From contig OZ245020.1 of assembly GCA_965223865.1 (NCBI GenBank), forward strand, positions 1,446,000 to 1,477,999: a stretch of DNA of 32,000 bases, read 5' to 3'. Shown piece after piece: positions 16,242-25,863 of the stretch. The stretch comes from Nitrosarchaeum sp. GTDB taxonomy: Archaea; Thermoproteota; Nitrososphaeria; Nitrososphaerales; Nitrosopumilaceae. The notes beneath the pieces are model-generated. The model saw nothing but the letters and a program-made list of their open reading frames with translations, made no database searches and had not been told where the DNA came from. Position numbers and translations under genes: made by a program. Each line of letters opens with the position of its first letter. Within the stretch, counting starts at the first letter, position 1.

Positions 16242-16859
16242 GTGAATAATACCATTAAACAAGTTTTAGATAAGTTAGAGAAAAGATCTTCACTTGAAAA
16301 AACAAAGAGTTTAGACATATTGCCGGAAGATAGGATGTTAGCAATTACAATGGAAACAGGAAAATTTTTCAATATACTGTTAAGGGCAATGAATGCAAAA
16401 AACATACTTGAGATCGGAACTTCGACTGGATATTCAACAATATGGATAGCTGAAGCTATTCAAGAAAATACAGGTAAAATTATAACAATTGAAAAAAACC
16501 CAAATAAAATCAAACGTGCTAAAAATAATTTCACAGAGGCTGGTGTCTCAGATACGATTGAGATAAGAGAAGGCATGGCATCTGATGTCTTATCAGAATT
16601 AACTAGCGAAGGATTTCAAAATCATTTTGATTTTGTATTAATAGATTCGGACAAAGAACAATGCATTAATTATTTTGATATTGTTTTACCATTAGTGAAG
16701 AAAAACGGGATTATTGCAACAGACAATATTTTGTACCCAGAAAAGTACAAGGCAGAAATGCAAAATTTTGTAGATCATGTTACAAATAATCCAAAGGTAA
16801 TTTCTGTAACAATTCCAATAGGAAATGGTGAAGAAATTACATTAAAGGTAAGAGATTAA
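16242..16859 (+). CDS. Class I SAM-dependent O-methyltransferase (caffeoyl-CoA OMT-like family)
   Basis: 205 aa. SAM motif I LEIGTSTGYS, then ITIEKNP, then FDFVLIDSDKE..Y, then GIIATDNIL, typical of O-methyltransferase family 3. Confidence 0.8.
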   Translation: MNNTIKQVLDKLEKRSSLEKTKSLDILPEDRMLAITMETGKFFNILLRAMNAKNILEIGTSTGYSTIWIAEAIQENTGKIITIEKNPNKIKRAKNNFTEAGVSDTIEIREGMASDVLSELTSEGFQNHFDFVLIDSDKEQCINYFDIVLPLVKKNGIIATDNILYPEKYKAEMQNFVDHVTNNPKVISVTIPIGNGEEITLKVRD

Positions 16860-16916: not shown

Positions 16917-19900
16917 TTAGGATTTTGTTACTTTGGGTTTGGTAGCTTTTTTAGGTTTGGCTACTTTGGGTTTGGTAGCTTTTTTAGGTTTGGCTACTTT
17001 GGGTTTGGTAGCTTTTTTAGGTTTGGCTACTTTGGGTTTGGTAGCTTTTTTAGGTTTGGCTACTTTGGGTTTGGTAGCTTTTTTAGGTTTGGCTACTTTG
17101 GGTTTGGTAGCTTTTTTAGGTTTGGCTACTTTGGGTTTATTCTGTTGCTCACTAATTTTTTGTTTAGTTTGTTCTTGTTTTATTTTTAATTTTTTAATAT
17201 CATCTTTAATTTTTTGTTCCTTCTTTTCTTGCTTTATTTTTAATTTTTCATAATTAGCTTTTTCCCTTTCTAATTGTCTTACTAGAATTTGTTGTTCCTT
17301 GTGTTTTTTCATTTCTTCTTTTTTCTGAATAGAAATCAATTGTTTTTCTTTAGAAATAGAATTAATTAATTCAAGACGTTTTTCTTTAGATTTAATCAAT
17401 TCATTTTTTTCTGTTTGAAGCGAATTCTTTATTTTTTCATAATTAGATAATGTAGTTTTTTCTTCTTCAATTTGAGATAAAAGAACATCATGTTCTGATT
17501 TGAACTTTTCAAGAGATTCTTTTTCTGCTTGGAGTTTAGCTAGATTTTCTTTTTGAAGTTCGGATTCTTGTTCAAGGGATTGTTTTTCTGCTTGGAGTTT
17601 AGCCAGGTTTTCTTTTTGGATTGAATATTCATTCTCAAGGGATTGCTGTTCTTGTTTTACTTGTTCTAGAAGTTGGTCATAATCAGATTGTGTCTTTTCA
17701 AGGGATTGTTTTTCTGCTTGGAGTTTAGGTAAGCTTTCTGCTTGGAGTTTGCTATCAGCTGCAATAGCCTGTTTTTCTTTTTCTATTTGGTCTAGTAGAT
17801 CATCGTAATCAGATTGTGTCTTTTCAAGAGATTCTTTTTCTGCTTGGAGTTTAGCCAGGTTTTTTTCTTCAAGTTTACTTTTAGAATCAATATCTTGTTT
17901 TTCTTGATTAATTTTTTGCATTAATTTTTCATTATCAGATTGTGCTTGTTCAAGGGATTGTTTTTCTGCTTGGAGTTTAGCCAGGTTTTCTTTTTGGATT
18001 GAATATTCATTCTCAAGGGATTGCTGTTCTTGTTTTACTTGTTCTAGAAGTTGGTCATAATCAGATTGTGTCTTTTCAAGGGATTGTTTTTCTGCTTGGA
18101 GTTTAGCCAGGTTTTCTTTTTGGATTGAATATTCATTCTCAAGGGATTGCTGTTCTTGTTTTACTTGTTCTAGAAGTTGGTCATAATCAGATTGTGTCTT
18201 TTCAAGGGATTGTTTTTCTGCTTGGAGTTTAGCCAGGTTTTCTTTTTGGATTGAATATTCATTCTCAAGGGATTGCTGTTCTTGTTTTACTTGTTCTAGA
18301 AGTTGGTCATAATCAGATTGTGTCTTTTCAAGGGATTGTTTTTCTGCTTGGAGTTTAGGTAAGCTTTCTGCTTGGAGTTTGCTATCAGCTGCAATAGCCT
18401 GTTTTTCTTTTTCTATTTGGTCTAGTAGATCATCGTAATCAGATTGTGTCTTTTCAAGGGATTGTTTTTCTGCTTGGAGTTTAGCCAGGTTTTCTTTTTG
18501 GATTGAATATTCATTCTCAAGGGATTGCTGTTCTTGTTTTACTTGTTCTAGAAGTTGGTCATAATCAGATTGTGTCTTTTCAAGGGATTGTTTTTCTGCT
18601 TGGAGTTTAGCCAGGTTTTCTTTTTGGATTGAATATTCATTCTCAAGGGATTGCTGTTCTTGTTTTACTTGTTCTAGAAGTTGGTCATAATCAGATTGTG
18701 TCTTTTCAAGGGATTGTTTTTCTGCTTGGAGTTTAGGTAAGCTTTCTGCTTGGAGTTTGCTATCAGCTGCAATAGCCTGTTTTTCTTTTTCTATTTGGTC
18801 TAGTAGATCATCGTAATCAGATTGTGTCTTTTCAAGAGATTCTTTTTCTGCTTGGAGTTTAGCCAGGTTTTTTTCTTCAAGTTTACTTTTAGAATCAATA
18901 TCTTGTTTTTCTTGATTAATTTTTTGCATTAATTTTTCATTATCAGATTGTGCTTGTTCAAGGGATTGTTTTTCTGCTTGGAGTTTAGCCAGGTTTTCTT
19001 TTTGGATTGAATATTCATTCTCAAGGGATTGCTGTTCTTGTTTTACTTGTTCTAGAAGTTGGTCATAATCAGATTGTGTCTTTTCAAGGGATTGTTTTTC
19101 TGCTTGGAGTTTAGGTAAGCTTTCTGCTTGGAGTTTGCTATCAGCTGCAATAGCCTGTTTTTCTTTTTCTATTTGGTCTAGTAGATCATCGTAATCAGAT
19201 TGTGTCTTTTCAAGGGATTGTTTTTCTGCTTGGAGTTTAGCCAGGTTTTCTTTTTGGATTGAATATTCATTCTCAAGGGATTGCTGTTCTTGTTTTAATT
19301 CATTTATGATTTTATTAATTTCATTTTTTGATTTTTCTAATTCAAGTTTTTCTTCTTCAAGTTGTTTTGATAATTCTGCTTGTTCATGTAATCGGGTTTT
19401 TTGAGACTCTCGCATTTCTTCAAGATGAATTTTTTCTTGTTGAATGTTTTTCTCTACTTCTTCTTGTTCTTTTTGAGCTTGGATTAATTCTGCTTTCTGA
19501 GATTCAGAATCTTTCATTAAGGATTCTCTTTCTTTTTTGATTTTTTCTAAAACAGCTGTTCTCTCGATTTTTATTTTCTCTAGTTCTGCTTTTTGGGCTG
19601 AAATTTGTTCAAATAAATTAATCTGAGATGAAATACTCTCACGTTCTCTTTTAATTTGAGACAATAGTTCTGCTTTTGCAGATTCAATTTCTTTTTTTCC
19701 TTCTATGTTTGTTTGGTTTGTTTTAGAAAAATCTGGATTTTCTGACTCTGTGTAAATGACTTCTTTAATTTTCGACTCCTCAATATTATTTTTATTAACA
19801 ACATAGGAATCTTCTACAGTGAATTGATTTGAATTCCAACCTTTGGGCATTGTGCCTCTGATTGTCATATTCTCTTTGGATTTTTGATTTGCTTCATTGG

Positions 19901-20291
19901 TTTGATCAGAAGTTCTTTCATCGGTAATCAAGTTAGTTGTATTACTTGATAATTCATTTAGTTTTCGTTGTACATAATTATAATCAGATTGATACAAAGA
20001 ACGGCCTTTTGATAGTGCATCATGTATAGATTGAAGCCGTCCATAATCACCAGCATCAGAATCAATTAGTTTGTCAACAAGGGGTAAAAGATCACTTTGA
20101 GGAACTTCTTCACTTTTAAATTCAAATGAGGATTCTAATAATTTTTCTAGGTACAGTCTATCAGTATTAAACAGAGTTTTGTTATTTCGAAGTGATTCAC
20201 GAATGTGATCTAATCTCCCTACATCACCTTTACCAAGATCTATTAATTGGCCAATTCTTTCAATGGTTTCTTCAATAGTTAATTCTTGCAT
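16917..20291 (-). CDS. 1124-aa repeat protein: duplicated N-terminal module, ~800-aa coiled coil and Lys/Pro-rich basic tail
   Basis: One uninterrupted ORF with no signal peptide or TM segment. Heptad-compatible Q/E/K/L-rich sequence across residues ~195-1040. Tandem DNA repeats are listed separately below. Confidence 0.85.
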   Translation of the reverse strand: MQELTIEETIERIGQLIDLGKGDVGRLDHIRESLRNNKTLFNTDRLYLEKLLESSFEFKSEEVPQSDLLPLVDKLIDSDAGDYGRLQSIHDALSKGRSLYQSDYNYVQRKLNELSSNTTNLITDERTSDQTNEANQKSKENMTIRGTMPKGWNSNQFTVEDSYVVNKNNIEESKIKEVIYTESENPDFSKTNQTNIEGKKEIESAKAELLSQIKRERESISSQINLFEQISAQKAELEKIKIERTAVLEKIKKERESLMKDSESQKAELIQAQKEQEEVEKNIQQEKIHLEEMRESQKTRLHEQAELSKQLEEEKLELEKSKNEINKIINELKQEQQSLENEYSIQKENLAKLQAEKQSLEKTQSDYDDLLDQIEKEKQAIAADSKLQAESLPKLQAEKQSLEKTQSDYDQLLEQVKQEQQSLENEYSIQKENLAKLQAEKQSLEQAQSDNEKLMQKINQEKQDIDSKSKLEEKNLAKLQAEKESLEKTQSDYDDLLDQIEKEKQAIAADSKLQAESLPKLQAEKQSLEKTQSDYDQLLEQVKQEQQSLENEYSIQKENLAKLQAEKQSLEKTQSDYDQLLEQVKQEQQSLENEYSIQKENLAKLQAEKQSLEKTQSDYDDLLDQIEKEKQAIAADSKLQAESLPKLQAEKQSLEKTQSDYDQLLEQVKQEQQSLENEYSIQKENLAKLQAEKQSLEKTQSDYDQLLEQVKQEQQSLENEYSIQKENLAKLQAEKQSLEKTQSDYDQLLEQVKQEQQSLENEYSIQKENLAKLQAEKQSLEQAQSDNEKLMQKINQEKQDIDSKSKLEEKNLAKLQAEKESLEKTQSDYDDLLDQIEKEKQAIAADSKLQAESLPKLQAEKQSLEKTQSDYDQLLEQVKQEQQSLENEYSIQKENLAKLQAEKQSLEQESELQKENLAKLQAEKESLEKFKSEHDVLLSQIEEEKTTLSNYEKIKNSLQTEKNELIKSKEKRLELINSISKEKQLISIQKKEEMKKHKEQQILVRQLEREKANYEKLKIKQEKKEQKIKDDIKKLKIKQEQTKQKISEQQNKPKVAKPKKATKPKVAKPKKATKPKVAKPKKATKPKVAKPKKATKPKVAKPKKATKPKVAKPKKATKPKVTKS
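16929..17138 (-). repeat. 33-bp tandem repeat, about 6.4 visually identical copies, encoding (KPKVAKPKKAT)n
   Basis: Unit TACTTTGGGTTTGGTAGCTTTTTTAGGTTTGGC begins at 16929, 16962, 16995 and so on. It forms the C-terminus of the 1124-aa ORF. Confidence 0.95.
17598..19235 (-). repeat. 126-bp tandem repeat, 13 units of three sequence types
   Basis: Unit boundaries checked by hand at 17598, 17724, 17976, 18102 and 19235. Protein-order pattern is A B C A' B B A B B B C A' B, with diverged partial units on both sides. Confidence 0.95.
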
Positions 20292-20719
20292 TTACCTCAT
20301 CTGAAATCCTATCATTTTTGATTAATGTAATGACAGGATAAAAAAACTTTTGAAAATTCATTTTGTGGAAATTATCAAACACGATCAAACTACGCTCTCA
20401 AAAAAATTAAGCAGAAGGCAAGATGTTTCCATCTTCAAGATTCAGTTCATGCTCTGAACTGAGCAAAGTGACCATTGTCACTTTTATTACGCTTATTTCA
20501 TCGTAATTGATCAATTTCTTGACCATCTCTGAGCCTTTCTGCGCTTTACATCCCAGAATTATTTCAAGAATGCAATATTATTACGCATTGATAATATTTA
20601 TTGATGATCTATAATTTCTATATAATTACTATATAGAATAAAATAAAAATTAAAAATATTTGAAATTTTTTTTGGATTTATTCAAATTTTTTAGCAACTA
20701 ATGTATCTTAAAACCAGAT

Positions 20720-21550
20720 TTAGAGTCTTTTTGATAATTGTTTTTTTTGTCCTACAAACAAAATACCAACAATTGCGATTCCTAGAATGGTCATAGTCAT
20801 AACACCAAATTCTGGAACTACGGTAGTCCCAACAATTGTAATTAATTTTGAATTCTCAGTCAACATAATATTGAGAACCCCTAGATCATTTTCTTTTACA
20901 TAATCAAATTCAGAGATCATTTCCCCGTCCACCCAAATTACAAAAGGACCTTCAATCAGATCGAAAGGAAGTCGTAATGTCAAATTATGATCGTCTGATT
21001 TTGCATTTCCAACTATCTCAAAGGTTATTGATTTTTCATCTTCATTAATGGATGCATTGGATAGTAATCCATCGAAATCATATTCCACATCAAATGTGGT
21101 CAATCCATCGCCAGCATCTGCACCAACTTGAGGAAGAATTTGAAATCCTTCAATAACAAACACAGTTCCAGTCATCCAGGGATGAACAAGACAATAGTAT
21201 GGATACTCATCTTTTTCGGTAAAAATAAAAGAAAATGATTTTCCAGGTGCAAATAAACCACTATCAAACATGTCATCTGGTCCATCAGTAGGAGTTCCAG
21301 AAGTTACGGTATGTGCAGCAGTATCTGCATTTTTCCAAACCACTTCATCACCAATCTCTATTGTAATATCGCCAGTAGTACTACCGTCTTTCTCACTTTG
21401 CCAGAAATATGGCGCATCAGGACTGGCAGCACCTGTGGGAATATTGATATCATAACTTGAAAAACCATATACCGGTCCTACCATAGAAAATACAAATAAT
21501 CCAAAAATTGCAGAAAGCAAAAAAAGAGATTTCATAAATTTACTTTGCAT
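20720..21550 (-). CDS. Secreted blue (type 1) copper protein, cupredoxin domain + extra beta-rich domain + PEFG-type C-terminal anchor
   Basis: N-terminal signal/TM. Copper ligands are AAHTVTS (His) and YYCLVHPWMTG (Cys, His, Met). C-terminus is VVPEFG + hydrophobic helix + KKQLSKRL. Confidence 0.8.
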   Translation of the reverse strand: MQSKFMKSLFLLSAIFGLFVFSMVGPVYGFSSYDINIPTGAASPDAPYFWQSEKDGSTTGDITIEIGDEVVWKNADTAAHTVTSGTPTDGPDDMFDSGLFAPGKSFSFIFTEKDEYPYYCLVHPWMTGTVFVIEGFQILPQVGADAGDGLTTFDVEYDFDGLLSNASINEDEKSITFEIVGNAKSDDHNLTLRLPFDLIEGPFVIWVDGEMISEFDYVKENDLGVLNIMLTENSKLITIVGTTVVPEFGVMTMTILGIAIVGILFVGQKKQLSKRL

Positions 21551-22205: not shown

Positions 22206-22631
22206 TTGCCTTCAGGAACTTGGATTGGTGGAATTTTTTTCAAAGACGAAGGAGGATATGAGATTATCTTAAAATCACTAAATCACTACAAGAAAAGATT
22301 GAGAACCATTGGAAACAGTCCAGAACTAAAAGATTCAGCTGCAATGTTTGCGTCAATATTACAGCAAGAGGCAACTAAGACAATTCCCAAAATTGAAGGG
22401 ACGATAAAAAAGATTAATGATTGTTTATCAGGAATCCAGTCAGTAGATTCATTGATTCAAGACATACCATTTTTTCAAAAAGCACTTGAATGTTATGATT
22501 CAGATATCAAAAAGGCTCAAAATACAGGATATGAGTATTTTGTGAATTTAGTAGGAGATTTATCAATTGCAAAAGATGAAATCATCCTTATTAAAAACGC
22601 ACAAAAAAAGATTAACCAGTTTTCAAACTAA
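22206..22631 (+). CDS. Hypothetical protein (141 aa)
   Basis: Clean ORF with a TTG start. Nothing recognised. Confidence 0.5.
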   Translation: MPSGTWIGGIFFKDEGGYEIILKSLNHYKKRLRTIGNSPELKDSAAMFASILQQEATKTIPKIEGTIKKINDCLSGIQSVDSLIQDIPFFQKALECYDSDIKKAQNTGYEYFVNLVGDLSIAKDEIILIKNAQKKINQFSN

Positions 22632-22632
22632 A

Positions 22633-22863
22633 TTAAATTCCCTGCAAATACCAGTCTAGGTAAGGTTGAAGGTTTTTACAAAGTTTCTTCTTTTCAGATT
22701 CCTCATGAGCATTAGGTATTGCTTGAATTTTTCCTTCAAGATAGTCCCTAGTCAAATTACTCTTAAAGTGATTCTTTATTTCATCGAGAGTTTTAACTAT
22801 TGTCTCAGACGGAATATTCTCAAAATTATTTAAAATTTCCTTTGTTTGCTTTTGTAATGACAT
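22633..22863 (-). CDS. Hypothetical small protein (76 aa)
   Basis: ORF with normal composition. The antisense ORF 22800..23000 is less plausible. Confidence 0.45.
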   Translation of the reverse strand: MSLQKQTKEILNNFENIPSETIVKTLDEIKNHFKSNLTRDYLEGKIQAIPNAHEESEKKKLCKNLQPYLDWYLQGI

Positions 22864-24990: not shown

Positions 24991-25425
24991 ATGGATTTTA
25001 AAAATATTTTAGTTGCTTACGATTCTTCAGGCTTTTCAAACAGAGCTTTCAAAAGCGCATTAGACATTGCAGAACCAAATAAAAGTAAAATTACTATTGC
25101 CACAGTGGTAACTGGTGTGTATCAGCCCTCAATCGGATTTACAATGAAATATGCAGAAAAAACATTAGAAAAACACAAAAAAATCATTAAAAAAATATTT
25201 TCAAATCTAGAATCTGCAGCAAACAAAAAAGGGGTAAGTCTCTCCTTAAAAATTTTGCACAATCCCTCTGTATCAAAAGGAATTCTAAATTATTTAAATT
25301 CACACAAATTTGATGTGATTGTTATTGGATCTCATGGCAGAACAGGACTTAACAAAATTATTTTGGGCAGTGTTGCAAATGACGTAGCACACAAAGCAAA
25401 AATTCCTGTAATGGTGGTAAAATAA
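24991..25425 (+). CDS. Universal stress protein (UspA family)
   Basis: 144 aa. ILVAYDSS...VIGSHGRTGLNKIILGSVANDVAHKAKIPVMVVK contains the USP ATP-binding G-x2-G-x9-G(S/T) motif. Confidence 0.85.
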   Translation: MDFKNILVAYDSSGFSNRAFKSALDIAEPNKSKITIATVVTGVYQPSIGFTMKYAEKTLEKHKKIIKKIFSNLESAANKKGVSLSLKILHNPSVSKGILNYLNSHKFDVIVIGSHGRTGLNKIILGSVANDVAHKAKIPVMVVK

Positions 25426-25428
25426 AAA

Positions 25429-25863
25429 ATGACGATCACAAATATTCTAGTTCCCTTTGATGGTTCCAAGTACTCAGTCAAAGCATTTAATGCTGCATTA
25501 GATATCGCAAAAAAGCAAAATGCAAAAATCATTGTTCTTACTTGCTTGGAAAAAGAAAATCTAGGAGCATGGTATGTCGATAACAGAGTAAATAAGCAAA
25601 TAGTAAAAGATGCAAAAAAATTTGCAATAGATTTTCTCACAAAGCTGAAAAACAAGGCAGAGAAGGTAGGAGTTTATGTTTCTGTAAACGTGCTTAAAAC
25701 AAAATCAATATCAAAGCAGATTGTTAATTTTGCAAATTCAAAAAAGATTAATCTAATTGTAATTGGATCTCATGGGCAATCAGGATTTAACCAATTTCTC
25801 TTAGGCAGTGTTAGTAATGCAGTAAGCCAATCAGCAAAATGTCCAGTTTTGATAATAAAATAA
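25429..25863 (+). CDS. Universal stress protein (UspA family), tandem paralog
   Basis: 144 aa. ILVPFDGS...VIGSHGQSGFNQFLLGSVSNAVSQSAKCPVLIIK. Lies 3 nt after the previous USP gene. Confidence 0.85.
   Translation: MTITNILVPFDGSKYSVKAFNAALDIAKKQNAKIIVLTCLEKENLGAWYVDNRVNKQIVKDAKKFAIDFLTKLKNKAEKVGVYVSVNVLKTKSISKQIVNFANSKKINLIVIGSHGQSGFNQFLLGSVSNAVSQSAKCPVLIIK

Follow-up and report, generated by a model that had tools for sequence, protein, structure and literature searches.

The stretch analysed here, referred to throughout as the window, comprises 32,000 nucleotides (nt) from Nitrosarchaeum sp. (GenBank assembly GCA_965223865.1, contig OZ245020.1, positions 1,446,000 to 1,477,999 of the forward strand). 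Its minus strand carries a large gene (16917..20291) whose product, the window protein, is laid out from N to C terminus as a tandem small head, a disordered linker, a heptad coiled coil and a Lys-rich repeat tail. A first-pass annotation had singled out 19953..20267, which corresponds to residues 9-113 of the 1124-amino-acid (aa) open reading frame (ORF), as a duplicated module of about 45 aa heading a giant coiled-coil protein. That architecture of tandem small head, long coiled coil and basic tail was borne out by composition and by AlphaFold2 (AF2) modelling; missing from the annotated layout was an invariant linker motif, G-x-[ML]-P-[KR]-x-W. We conclude that the window protein is an undescribed, lineage-specific head-rod-tail protein. 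Its features are as follows.

16917..20291, minus strand: complete gene for the window protein (1124 aa; head, linker, coiled coil, basic tail), from the ORF listing
20136..20276, minus strand: module 1 (residues 6-52), from AF2 and the family hidden Markov model (HMM); helices at residues 6-19, 24-35 and 42-52
19947..20099, minus strand: module 2 (residues 65-115), from AF2; helices at residues 65-78, 83-94 and 101-115; the copy that gives weak matches to the protein YihI
19737..19946, minus strand: disordered linker rich in Asn, Glu, Thr and Ser (residues 116-185), from the AF2 predicted local distance difference test (pLDDT) and composition
19836..19856, minus strand: motif G-T-M-P-K-G-W (residues 146-152), of the family form G-x-[ML]-P-[KR]-x-W, from conservation
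17172..19736, minus strand: coiled-coil rod (residues 186-1040), from the AF2 helix that begins at residue 186, heptad periodicity and composition
17566..19297, minus strand: 42-aa (126-nt, six-heptad) repeat array of about 13.7 copies, from Tandem Repeats Finder and protein self-comparison
16920..17171, minus strand: basic tail (residues 1041-1124, 84 aa), from Tandem Repeats Finder and composition
20338..20350, minus strand: A/T-rich upstream element AAAGTTTTTTTAT, which ends 47 nt 5' of the ATG and is invariant in the window, at locus L001 and at the more divergent locus L002

The sequence around the upstream element AAAGTTTTTTTAT varies among the window, L001 and L002; the element is possibly the BRE/TATA region (B recognition element and TATA box) of a putative promoter. 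A Pfam scan of the full-length protein found no domain, and the Pfam and NCBIfam scans revealed no ATPase head. The highest Kyte-Doolittle hydropathy over any 19 residues was 0.17, with no transmembrane segment and no signal peptide, just as the first-pass annotation had stated.

Local alignment of residues 1-60 with residues 61-125 (Smith-Waterman, BLOSUM62, gap penalties 11/1) returned one gap-free match of 51 residues with a score of 78. Scores from 5000 residue shuffles had a mean of 23.4 (standard deviation 4.5) and a maximum of 51; none reached 78, and a Gumbel fit gave a p value of about 1e-7. The duplication of the N-terminal module is thus real, well clear of chance similarity. In the register 13-53 against 72-112, 14 of 41 positions are identical without gaps (L I D G D G R L I L L D Y L). 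In the annotated list of shared positions the last three (K, L and E) need a one-residue indel, so the two segments that had been compared differ in length (41 vs 42 residues); the annotation was otherwise accurate. A single-module family HMM detects both copies separately, with a best single-domain score of 55.9-66.3 bits in the window protein and its orthologues.

AF2 was run twice, on eight orthologous heads (mean pLDDT 82) and on 22 more diverse sequences covering residues 1-227. Both runs placed three helices in each copy, with a module pLDDT of about 88-92, so that the head prediction called for in the annotation gives a confident three-helix unit per copy. Each module is about 43 aa long; in module 1 a G-x-G-D turn precedes helix 2 and a [ST]-D cap precedes helix 3. 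Invariant across an alignment of 22 sequences are D23, R26, L27, L40 and D44 in module 1 and R85, L86, S102, D103 and Y106 in module 2. We interpret the conserved G-D and S/T-D pairs as helix caps and the other conserved positions as core hydrophobics; none of these positions form a Cys/His or catalytic-type pattern. An EF-hand was considered for the D-x-G-x-G-D loop and rejected on inspection, as neither the spacing nor the -Z glutamate fits. Specialisation of the two positions was not seen either: identities across proteins are 42-46% for module 1 with module 1, module 2 with module 2 and module 1 with module 2 alike.

The module is not private to the giant protein. An exhaustive HMMER search with the head profile over 1.84 billion cluster representatives found 339 clusters at E <= 1e-3, 111 of them at E <= 1e-10; word-indexed protein searches gave just 9, 2 and 8 matches. 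The consensus of the single-module HMM is LEKIKKLIDSGIGDPGRLEHILESLEKGKPLYESDQKYLEEKL. Among 171 family sequences, two copies occur in 121, one in 35 (many of these being fragments), three in 7, four in 1 and five in 7. All members that could be placed are Nitrososphaeria or otherwise archaeal, and those with a named source are Nitrosopumilus or "Thaumarchaeota". The 339 clusters contain at least seven architectures.

Two modules, the G-x-M-P-K-x-W motif, coiled coil and basic tail, typically 450-560 aa: the class of the window protein
Two modules and coiled coil, the motif being absent
Two or three modules and a membrane anchor at the C-terminus; a CPICKH motif in some
Four or five modules alone, in an array whose period is 58-59 residues
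Two modules, membrane segments and a GT2 glycosyltransferase (P0078)
Two modules and a KAP P-loop NTPase (P0125)
Two modules and a Cys-rich, FCS/TRASH-like C-terminal end

In every case the modules belong to the soluble portion and precede the coiled coil, membrane anchor, GT2 domain or KAP NTPase. We read the C-terminal anchors of the paralogues as tail anchors, which would place the modules in the cytoplasm. Because the module is portable, occurs in two to five copies in soluble parts and is joined to domains that anchor, polymerise or catalyse, it reads as a docking or interaction unit, presumably for other proteins. The window has no second module-bearing gene that the family HMM could find. 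Through its KAP NTPase domain, P0125 matches three defence-system candidates (PDC-S20, QatA and PifA), and the genes around P0125 / P0161 (L010 3431-5293) are of the glycosyltransferase, epimerase, polysaccharide deacetylase and HTH_45 kinds. With PADLOC the window protein matched no defence model; P0125 was the only family member to do so, through its NTPase domain.

YihI is a GTPase-activating protein of the GTPase Der in gammaproteobacteria, and reportedly appears in E. coli RNA-binding-protein screens. It was the one known family that recurred when 50 diverse two-module segments were compared with Pfam and NCBIfam. The Pfam YihI family PF04220 was matched by 30/50 segments (best E 2e-9) and the independent NCBIfam YihI model NF003560 by 32/50 (best E 4.6e-9); no other family was matched by more than 3 of the 50. 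Those PF04220 matches that were viewed individually fall at profile positions of about 82-153, centred on 95-134. Four members exceed the Pfam gathering cut-off of 25 bits (P0049, 28.0; P0099, 27.6; P0039, 26.1; P0043, 25.7 bits), and no family member nears the NCBIfam equivalog cut-off of 90 bits. When 77 modules were compared with E. coli YihI by hhalign, helix 2, the loop and helix 3 aligned with YihI residues 105-133 (Prob 68%, E 4.7e-5). The module HMM scored 12.2 bits on E. coli YihI; the best of 2000 shuffles reached 8.7.

These comparisons support the view that the module is a relative or close structural analogue of the YihI helical core. The head of the window protein itself scores below threshold: against PF04220 it gives 13.9 bits over residues 85-130 (E 0.047), or 14.8 bits over residues 79-106 for the trimmed segment (E 0.025), and against the NCBIfam YihI model 10.3-13.1 bits. 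With a sub-threshold score and a wholly different architecture, the window protein is therefore not a YihI. The aligned region is the ordered part of YihI, whose two termini are disordered; the Lys-rich N-terminus binds polyphosphate (PMC12345225). Deletion of YihI residues 1-45 enhances Der binding (PMC12345225), and on Der the contacts with YihI lie in the GD2 and KH domains (PMC8696166). We infer that the ordered segment of YihI makes the contact with Der. The helical core of YihI is most plausibly a protein-binding element.

The whole protein and its head matched no Pfam or NCBIfam family above cut-off. A DUF7118 match (E 0.0097) was dropped, as it did not recur in other members. PDB sequences were searched with three queries (head profile, single-module profile, tail), none of which gave a match below E 0.01, and literature searches found no description of the module family. 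The first-pass annotation had been unable to name the module and had suggested that the protein might be undescribed. The second point holds, no dedicated Pfam or NCBIfam model, solved structure or paper having been found. The first holds in part: the module has no dedicated family, yet is locally similar to the YihI core (PF04220 positions of about 82-134). The profile search that the annotation had proposed for the head returned this core repeatedly in other members, with the window protein itself sub-threshold. YihI does not explain the protein and serves as a lead only.

The linker that follows the head is unalignable and of varying length among homologues. Residues 120-185 are predicted to be disordered, with AF2 pLDDT below 50 at residues 120-147 and 155-185. 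Within it, P149 and W152 of the motif are invariant and G146 is present in at least 90% of 22-23 sequences, in proteins whose identity to the window protein is just 26-54%, or 83% in the closest orthologue. Docking of the G-x-M-P-K-x-W motif on the head of the same chain found no support in the 227-residue model, where the linker around the motif has a pLDDT below 50 and ten-residue motif blocks average 44-49.

Heptad hydrophobic periodicity runs all along the rod (residues 225-1040). Over residues 206-1040 (835 residues) Glu, Gln, Lys and Leu abound in the rod, which has no Gly, four Pro and a net charge of -49. The class defined by a long heptad rod between a non-helical head and tail, which is a structural class and not a homology family, takes in the window protein. 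About 590 rod residues belong to the 42-aa repeat array, which has three unit variants and a 336-aa higher-order repeat; the 42-aa periodicity is also present in the rods of L001, L006 and L009. As 42 residues make six heptads, the gain or loss of one unit keeps the coiled-coil register. As one continuous coiled coil the rod would reach a length of about 125 nm (about 850 residues at 0.148 nm each). Each B-type 42-aa unit carries a proline in AESLPKLQAEK (for example at residues 390-393, around 19114..19125), and L-P-[KQ]-L is also found in the orthologues L002 and L008. These prolines may be regularly spaced hinges in the rod.

The tail is 42% Lys, 15% Pro and 14% Ala, with a net charge of +34, and holds 6.7 copies of KPKVAKPKKAT (33-nt period, 98% matches). 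It has both marks of histone-H1-like or AlgP-type tails, low-complexity Lys/Pro/Ala repeats and a high net positive charge. Orthologue tails are built of KPKVTKPKKTT, AKKPAKAAA or KPKAEPKPKAAAKKPA repeats and have net charges of +22 to +34. The repeat sequence therefore drifts between genera while the Lys/Pro/Ala composition and charge are kept, suggesting selection on charge and composition. Such selection fits what would be expected of a predicted polyanion-binding tail. A 106-aa ORF on the opposite strand (16933..17253, plus strand; GLATLGLVAFL... repeats) is an antisense shadow of the KPKVAKPKKAT repeat and not a gene, and the same repeat DNA yields, on the plus strand, a series of spurious hairpins that resemble terminators.

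Scanning species-representative genomes turned up nine loci, each of them in Nitrosopumilaceae. The closest, on a Nitrosarchaeum chromosome, has a head 91% identical to that of the window protein and flanking genes 85-99% identical to those of the window. Three complete Nitrosopumilaceae chromosomes have full-length genes (L001, 1036 aa; L006, 1123 aa; L009, 1643 aa) that share the head, the motif, the 42-aa-periodic rod and the Lys/Pro/Ala tail. At the other related loci (6/9: L002, L003, L004, L005, L007 and L008) the contig ends within the gene. Because contigs end inside this repeat-rich gene, its database entries are mostly truncated "partial" proteins of 110-460 aa, a practical warning for work on the family, as most related assemblies hold the gene in truncated form.

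P0179 is a 353-aa protein of head, coiled coil and basic end, encoded on a 589-kb contig of 59% G+C that also encodes Alba, Hjc and RpoK. It adjoins the same convergent Methyltransf_3 O-methyltransferase gene as the window gene (46% identity), with homologues of two small genes of the window, 22206..22631 and 22633..22863, close by (L019 5986-9189 was compared with window 16242..16859 and 22206..22863; the window is 31% G+C). Since layout and neighbours are kept between genomes of 31% and 59% G+C, the family looks old and vertically inherited. Rod length looks fast-changing, ranging across the family from about 190 to about 1400 residues. A viral origin was rejected: a scan of viral contigs turned up no relatives, and phage DNA gave no match.

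A plastocyanin-like gene adjoins the window gene and its counterparts in L001 and L002, and an O-methyltransferase gene is also present in the window and L001. Two Nitrosopumilus chromosomes instead have a DUF72 neighbour, with a uracil-DNA glycosylase or NHL-repeat protein gene downstream. An operon partner was therefore rejected, as the neighbours differ between genera (cupredoxin and O-methyltransferase vs DUF72 and uracil-DNA glycosylase). The search for conserved neighbours that the annotation had suggested thus found no partner gene shared between genera, and some synteny with the 59% G+C contig. The rest of the window is ordinary chromosome, with genes for a purQ-like amidotransferase, TatC, PurP, TrkH, two Usp proteins and aEF-2.

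20720..21550, minus strand, upstream of the window gene: 276-aa plastocyanin-like copper protein with an N-terminal signal or transmembrane segment; its C-terminus (VPEFG, a transmembrane segment and a basic end) resembles a PEF-CTERM-type archaeal sorting signal
24991..25425 and 25429..25863, plus strand: tandem 144-aa Usp paralogues, an arrangement kept in L001 and L002
15714..16094, minus strand: 126-aa DUF6659 protein (E 8.7e-12), kept in L001, with a weak relative in L004

On an unrelated metagenome contig, a cupredoxin-domain gene abuts, stop to start, the gene for the three-module, membrane-anchored P0100 (L017 4222-6000 and 6001-6825). This adjacency may be due to chance, given the many cupredoxins in these archaea.

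We tentatively favour the view that the window protein is a cytoplasmic, probably dimeric rod, specific to Nitrososphaeria, that tethers a head-bound partner to a polyanion. We infer the dimerisation, all binding partners and the cellular role from the features described above. The two three-helix heads would dock a protein partner, and the linker motif G-x-M-P-K-x-W would offer a further place to dock. Some 850 residues of heptad coiled coil would act as a spacer, its length tuned by turnover of the 42-residue unit. The Lys/Pro/Ala tail would bind a polyanion, most likely chromosomal DNA, with RNA or polyphosphate as alternatives, and might act as the tails of histone H1, AlgP, HupB and HBHA do. 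In this way the protein would keep the partner on its heads a fixed distance away from the nucleoid or another polyanion. The cytoplasmic scaffold or tether proposed by the first-pass annotation stays a reasonable suggestion.

A bolder and improbable version of this tether would make the module of about 43 aa a Nitrososphaeria-wide "address tag" that docks diverse proteins on one hub, possibly a GTPase. The giant protein would then be a length-tunable ruler positioning the chromosome, ribosomes or polyphosphate granules relative to the hub. In the same doubtful scheme, the docked proteins would comprise the nucleoid-binding rod, the tail-anchored membrane proteins, the glycosyltransferase, the KAP NTPase and the stand-alone arrays of 3-5 modules.

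Several observations weigh against the favoured tether. The YihI score of the window protein is sub-threshold (13.9-14.8 bits) and the similarity spans only about 30-50 residues. Foldseek searches of the head model against the PDB and BFVD gave no match below E 0.6, the proteins returned being small, helical and generic. The GTPase Der/EngA is bacterial and is not known in archaea, so the partner of YihI cannot be transferred to the window protein. Searches of Pfam and PDB sequences revealed no homology of the tail to any DNA-binding family; polyanion binding is argued from composition. The four regularly spaced prolines could split the rod into segments, and neighbouring genes, which differ between genera, offer no functional hint.

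The head-rod-tail layout would also suit an intermediate-filament-like cytoskeletal protein (cf. crescentin, FilP and Scy), which would polymerise by itself, the resulting filaments or lattice giving the small rod-shaped cell its shape or stiffness. Here the heads and basic tails would mediate lateral or end-to-end assembly, not separate partner binding. This is possible, though we think it unlikely. The heptad rod is almost uninterrupted, with no Gly in 835 residues; the acidic rod (-49) and basic tail (+34) could pair electrostatically; Pfam and NCBIfam scans found no enzymatic domain; and the protein is conserved across Nitrososphaeria. The rod length of orthologues, however, varies nearly ten-fold, and between close relatives by whole 42-aa units, which is unusual for a lattice-former. 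The same heads are also found on membrane-anchored proteins, GT2 and the KAP NTPase, where filaments are not expected.

That Der is not known in archaea likewise counts against a YihI-like regulator of a ribosome-associated archaeal GTPase or of ribosome assembly. In such a regulator the heads would modulate the GTPase, the Lys tail would bind rRNA, ribosomes or polyphosphate, and the coiled coil would dimerise or space the protein. We regard this explanation as improbable, even though YihI is the sole recurrent match in the Pfam and NCBIfam libraries and both proteins combine a helical unit with a disordered Lys-rich region (PMC12345225). The similarity of the window protein to YihI is local and weak, no GTPase gene lies among the conserved neighbours, the 850-residue rod has no obvious role in GTPase activation, and the module is also found in contexts unrelated to ribosomes (GT2, tail-anchored membrane proteins). 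Near-identical tandem coding repeats whose copy number differs between relatives might instead recall an extracellular or surface fibril like streptococcal M protein, with repeat number varying under selection by viruses or grazers. We consider this very improbable indeed: no signal peptide, transmembrane segment or sorting motif was found (hydropathy maximum 0.17), the N-terminal head is conserved and not variable, and in paralogues the modules precede membrane anchors at the C-terminus.

Ammonia-oxidising archaea rank with the most abundant microbes on Earth. Very little is known of their cell biology, and they are not known to have a routine genetic system. The favoured tether would be of interest mainly as a possible route to an organising hub in these cells. 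The rod could reach across much of the width of a cell, one end resembling a binder of chromatin, RNA or polyphosphate and the other being a docking module reused in at least seven architectures. Definition of the module gives a handle for finding its partner. The YihI link is a first functional lead, and it points to the only ordered piece of YihI. If true, the "address tag" and ruler together would be an unrecognised organising system of archaeal cell biology in tiny ammonia-oxidiser cells.

Set beside known systems, the window protein shares a long coiled coil with SMC/Rad50 proteins, and its rod gives weak matches to SMC profiles. TIGR02168 matches residues 522-798 at 56.6 bits (ten-fold below the cut-off of 567) and TIGR02169 scores 33 bits against a cut-off of 729, both within coiled-coil residues of about 512-805. 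In contrast to SMC/Rad50, the window protein has neither Walker A/B ATPase head halves nor a hinge. The annotated lack of such heads was thus upheld, Pfam being blank and the SMC models matching the coiled coil only. The likeness to crescentin, FilP and Scy lies in the head-rod-tail layout, the long heptad rod, the lack of an enzymatic domain and, as in Scy, the repeats within the rod. No sequence relationship to these proteins was found; the head of the window protein is a folded tandem domain shared with non-filament architectures, its tail is an H1-like polycation and its rod is highly variable in length.

Polyanion-binding tails offer another parallel. The C-terminal domain of histone H1, AlgP, mycobacterial HupB and HBHA all share with the tail of the window protein its K/P/A low-complexity repeats and very high positive charge. 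In M. tuberculosis HBHA, Lys-rich repeats are also joined to a coiled coil. HBHA is reported to be nucleoid-associated (PMC10665949), and Pseudomonas AlgP to space polyphosphate granules (PMC9239181). There is no detectable sequence homology with these four proteins; the window repeat KPKVAKPKKAT differs from theirs and is not conserved between genera, its rod is far longer and its heads have no counterpart there. With YihI the module shares conserved R-L, G, L, aromatic and L positions, and both proteins carry a disordered lysine-rich region. YihI differs in being about 170 aa long with one copy, a Lys-rich N-terminus and an acidic C-tail, whereas the window protein has 1124 aa, two N-terminal copies, an 850-aa coiled coil and a Lys-rich C-terminus. 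The general kind of the window protein, a coiled-coil tether or scaffold with a polycationic tail, is already known; its head module is a domain that recurs in many proteins and can be linked to the YihI core, and is no peculiarity of the window gene.

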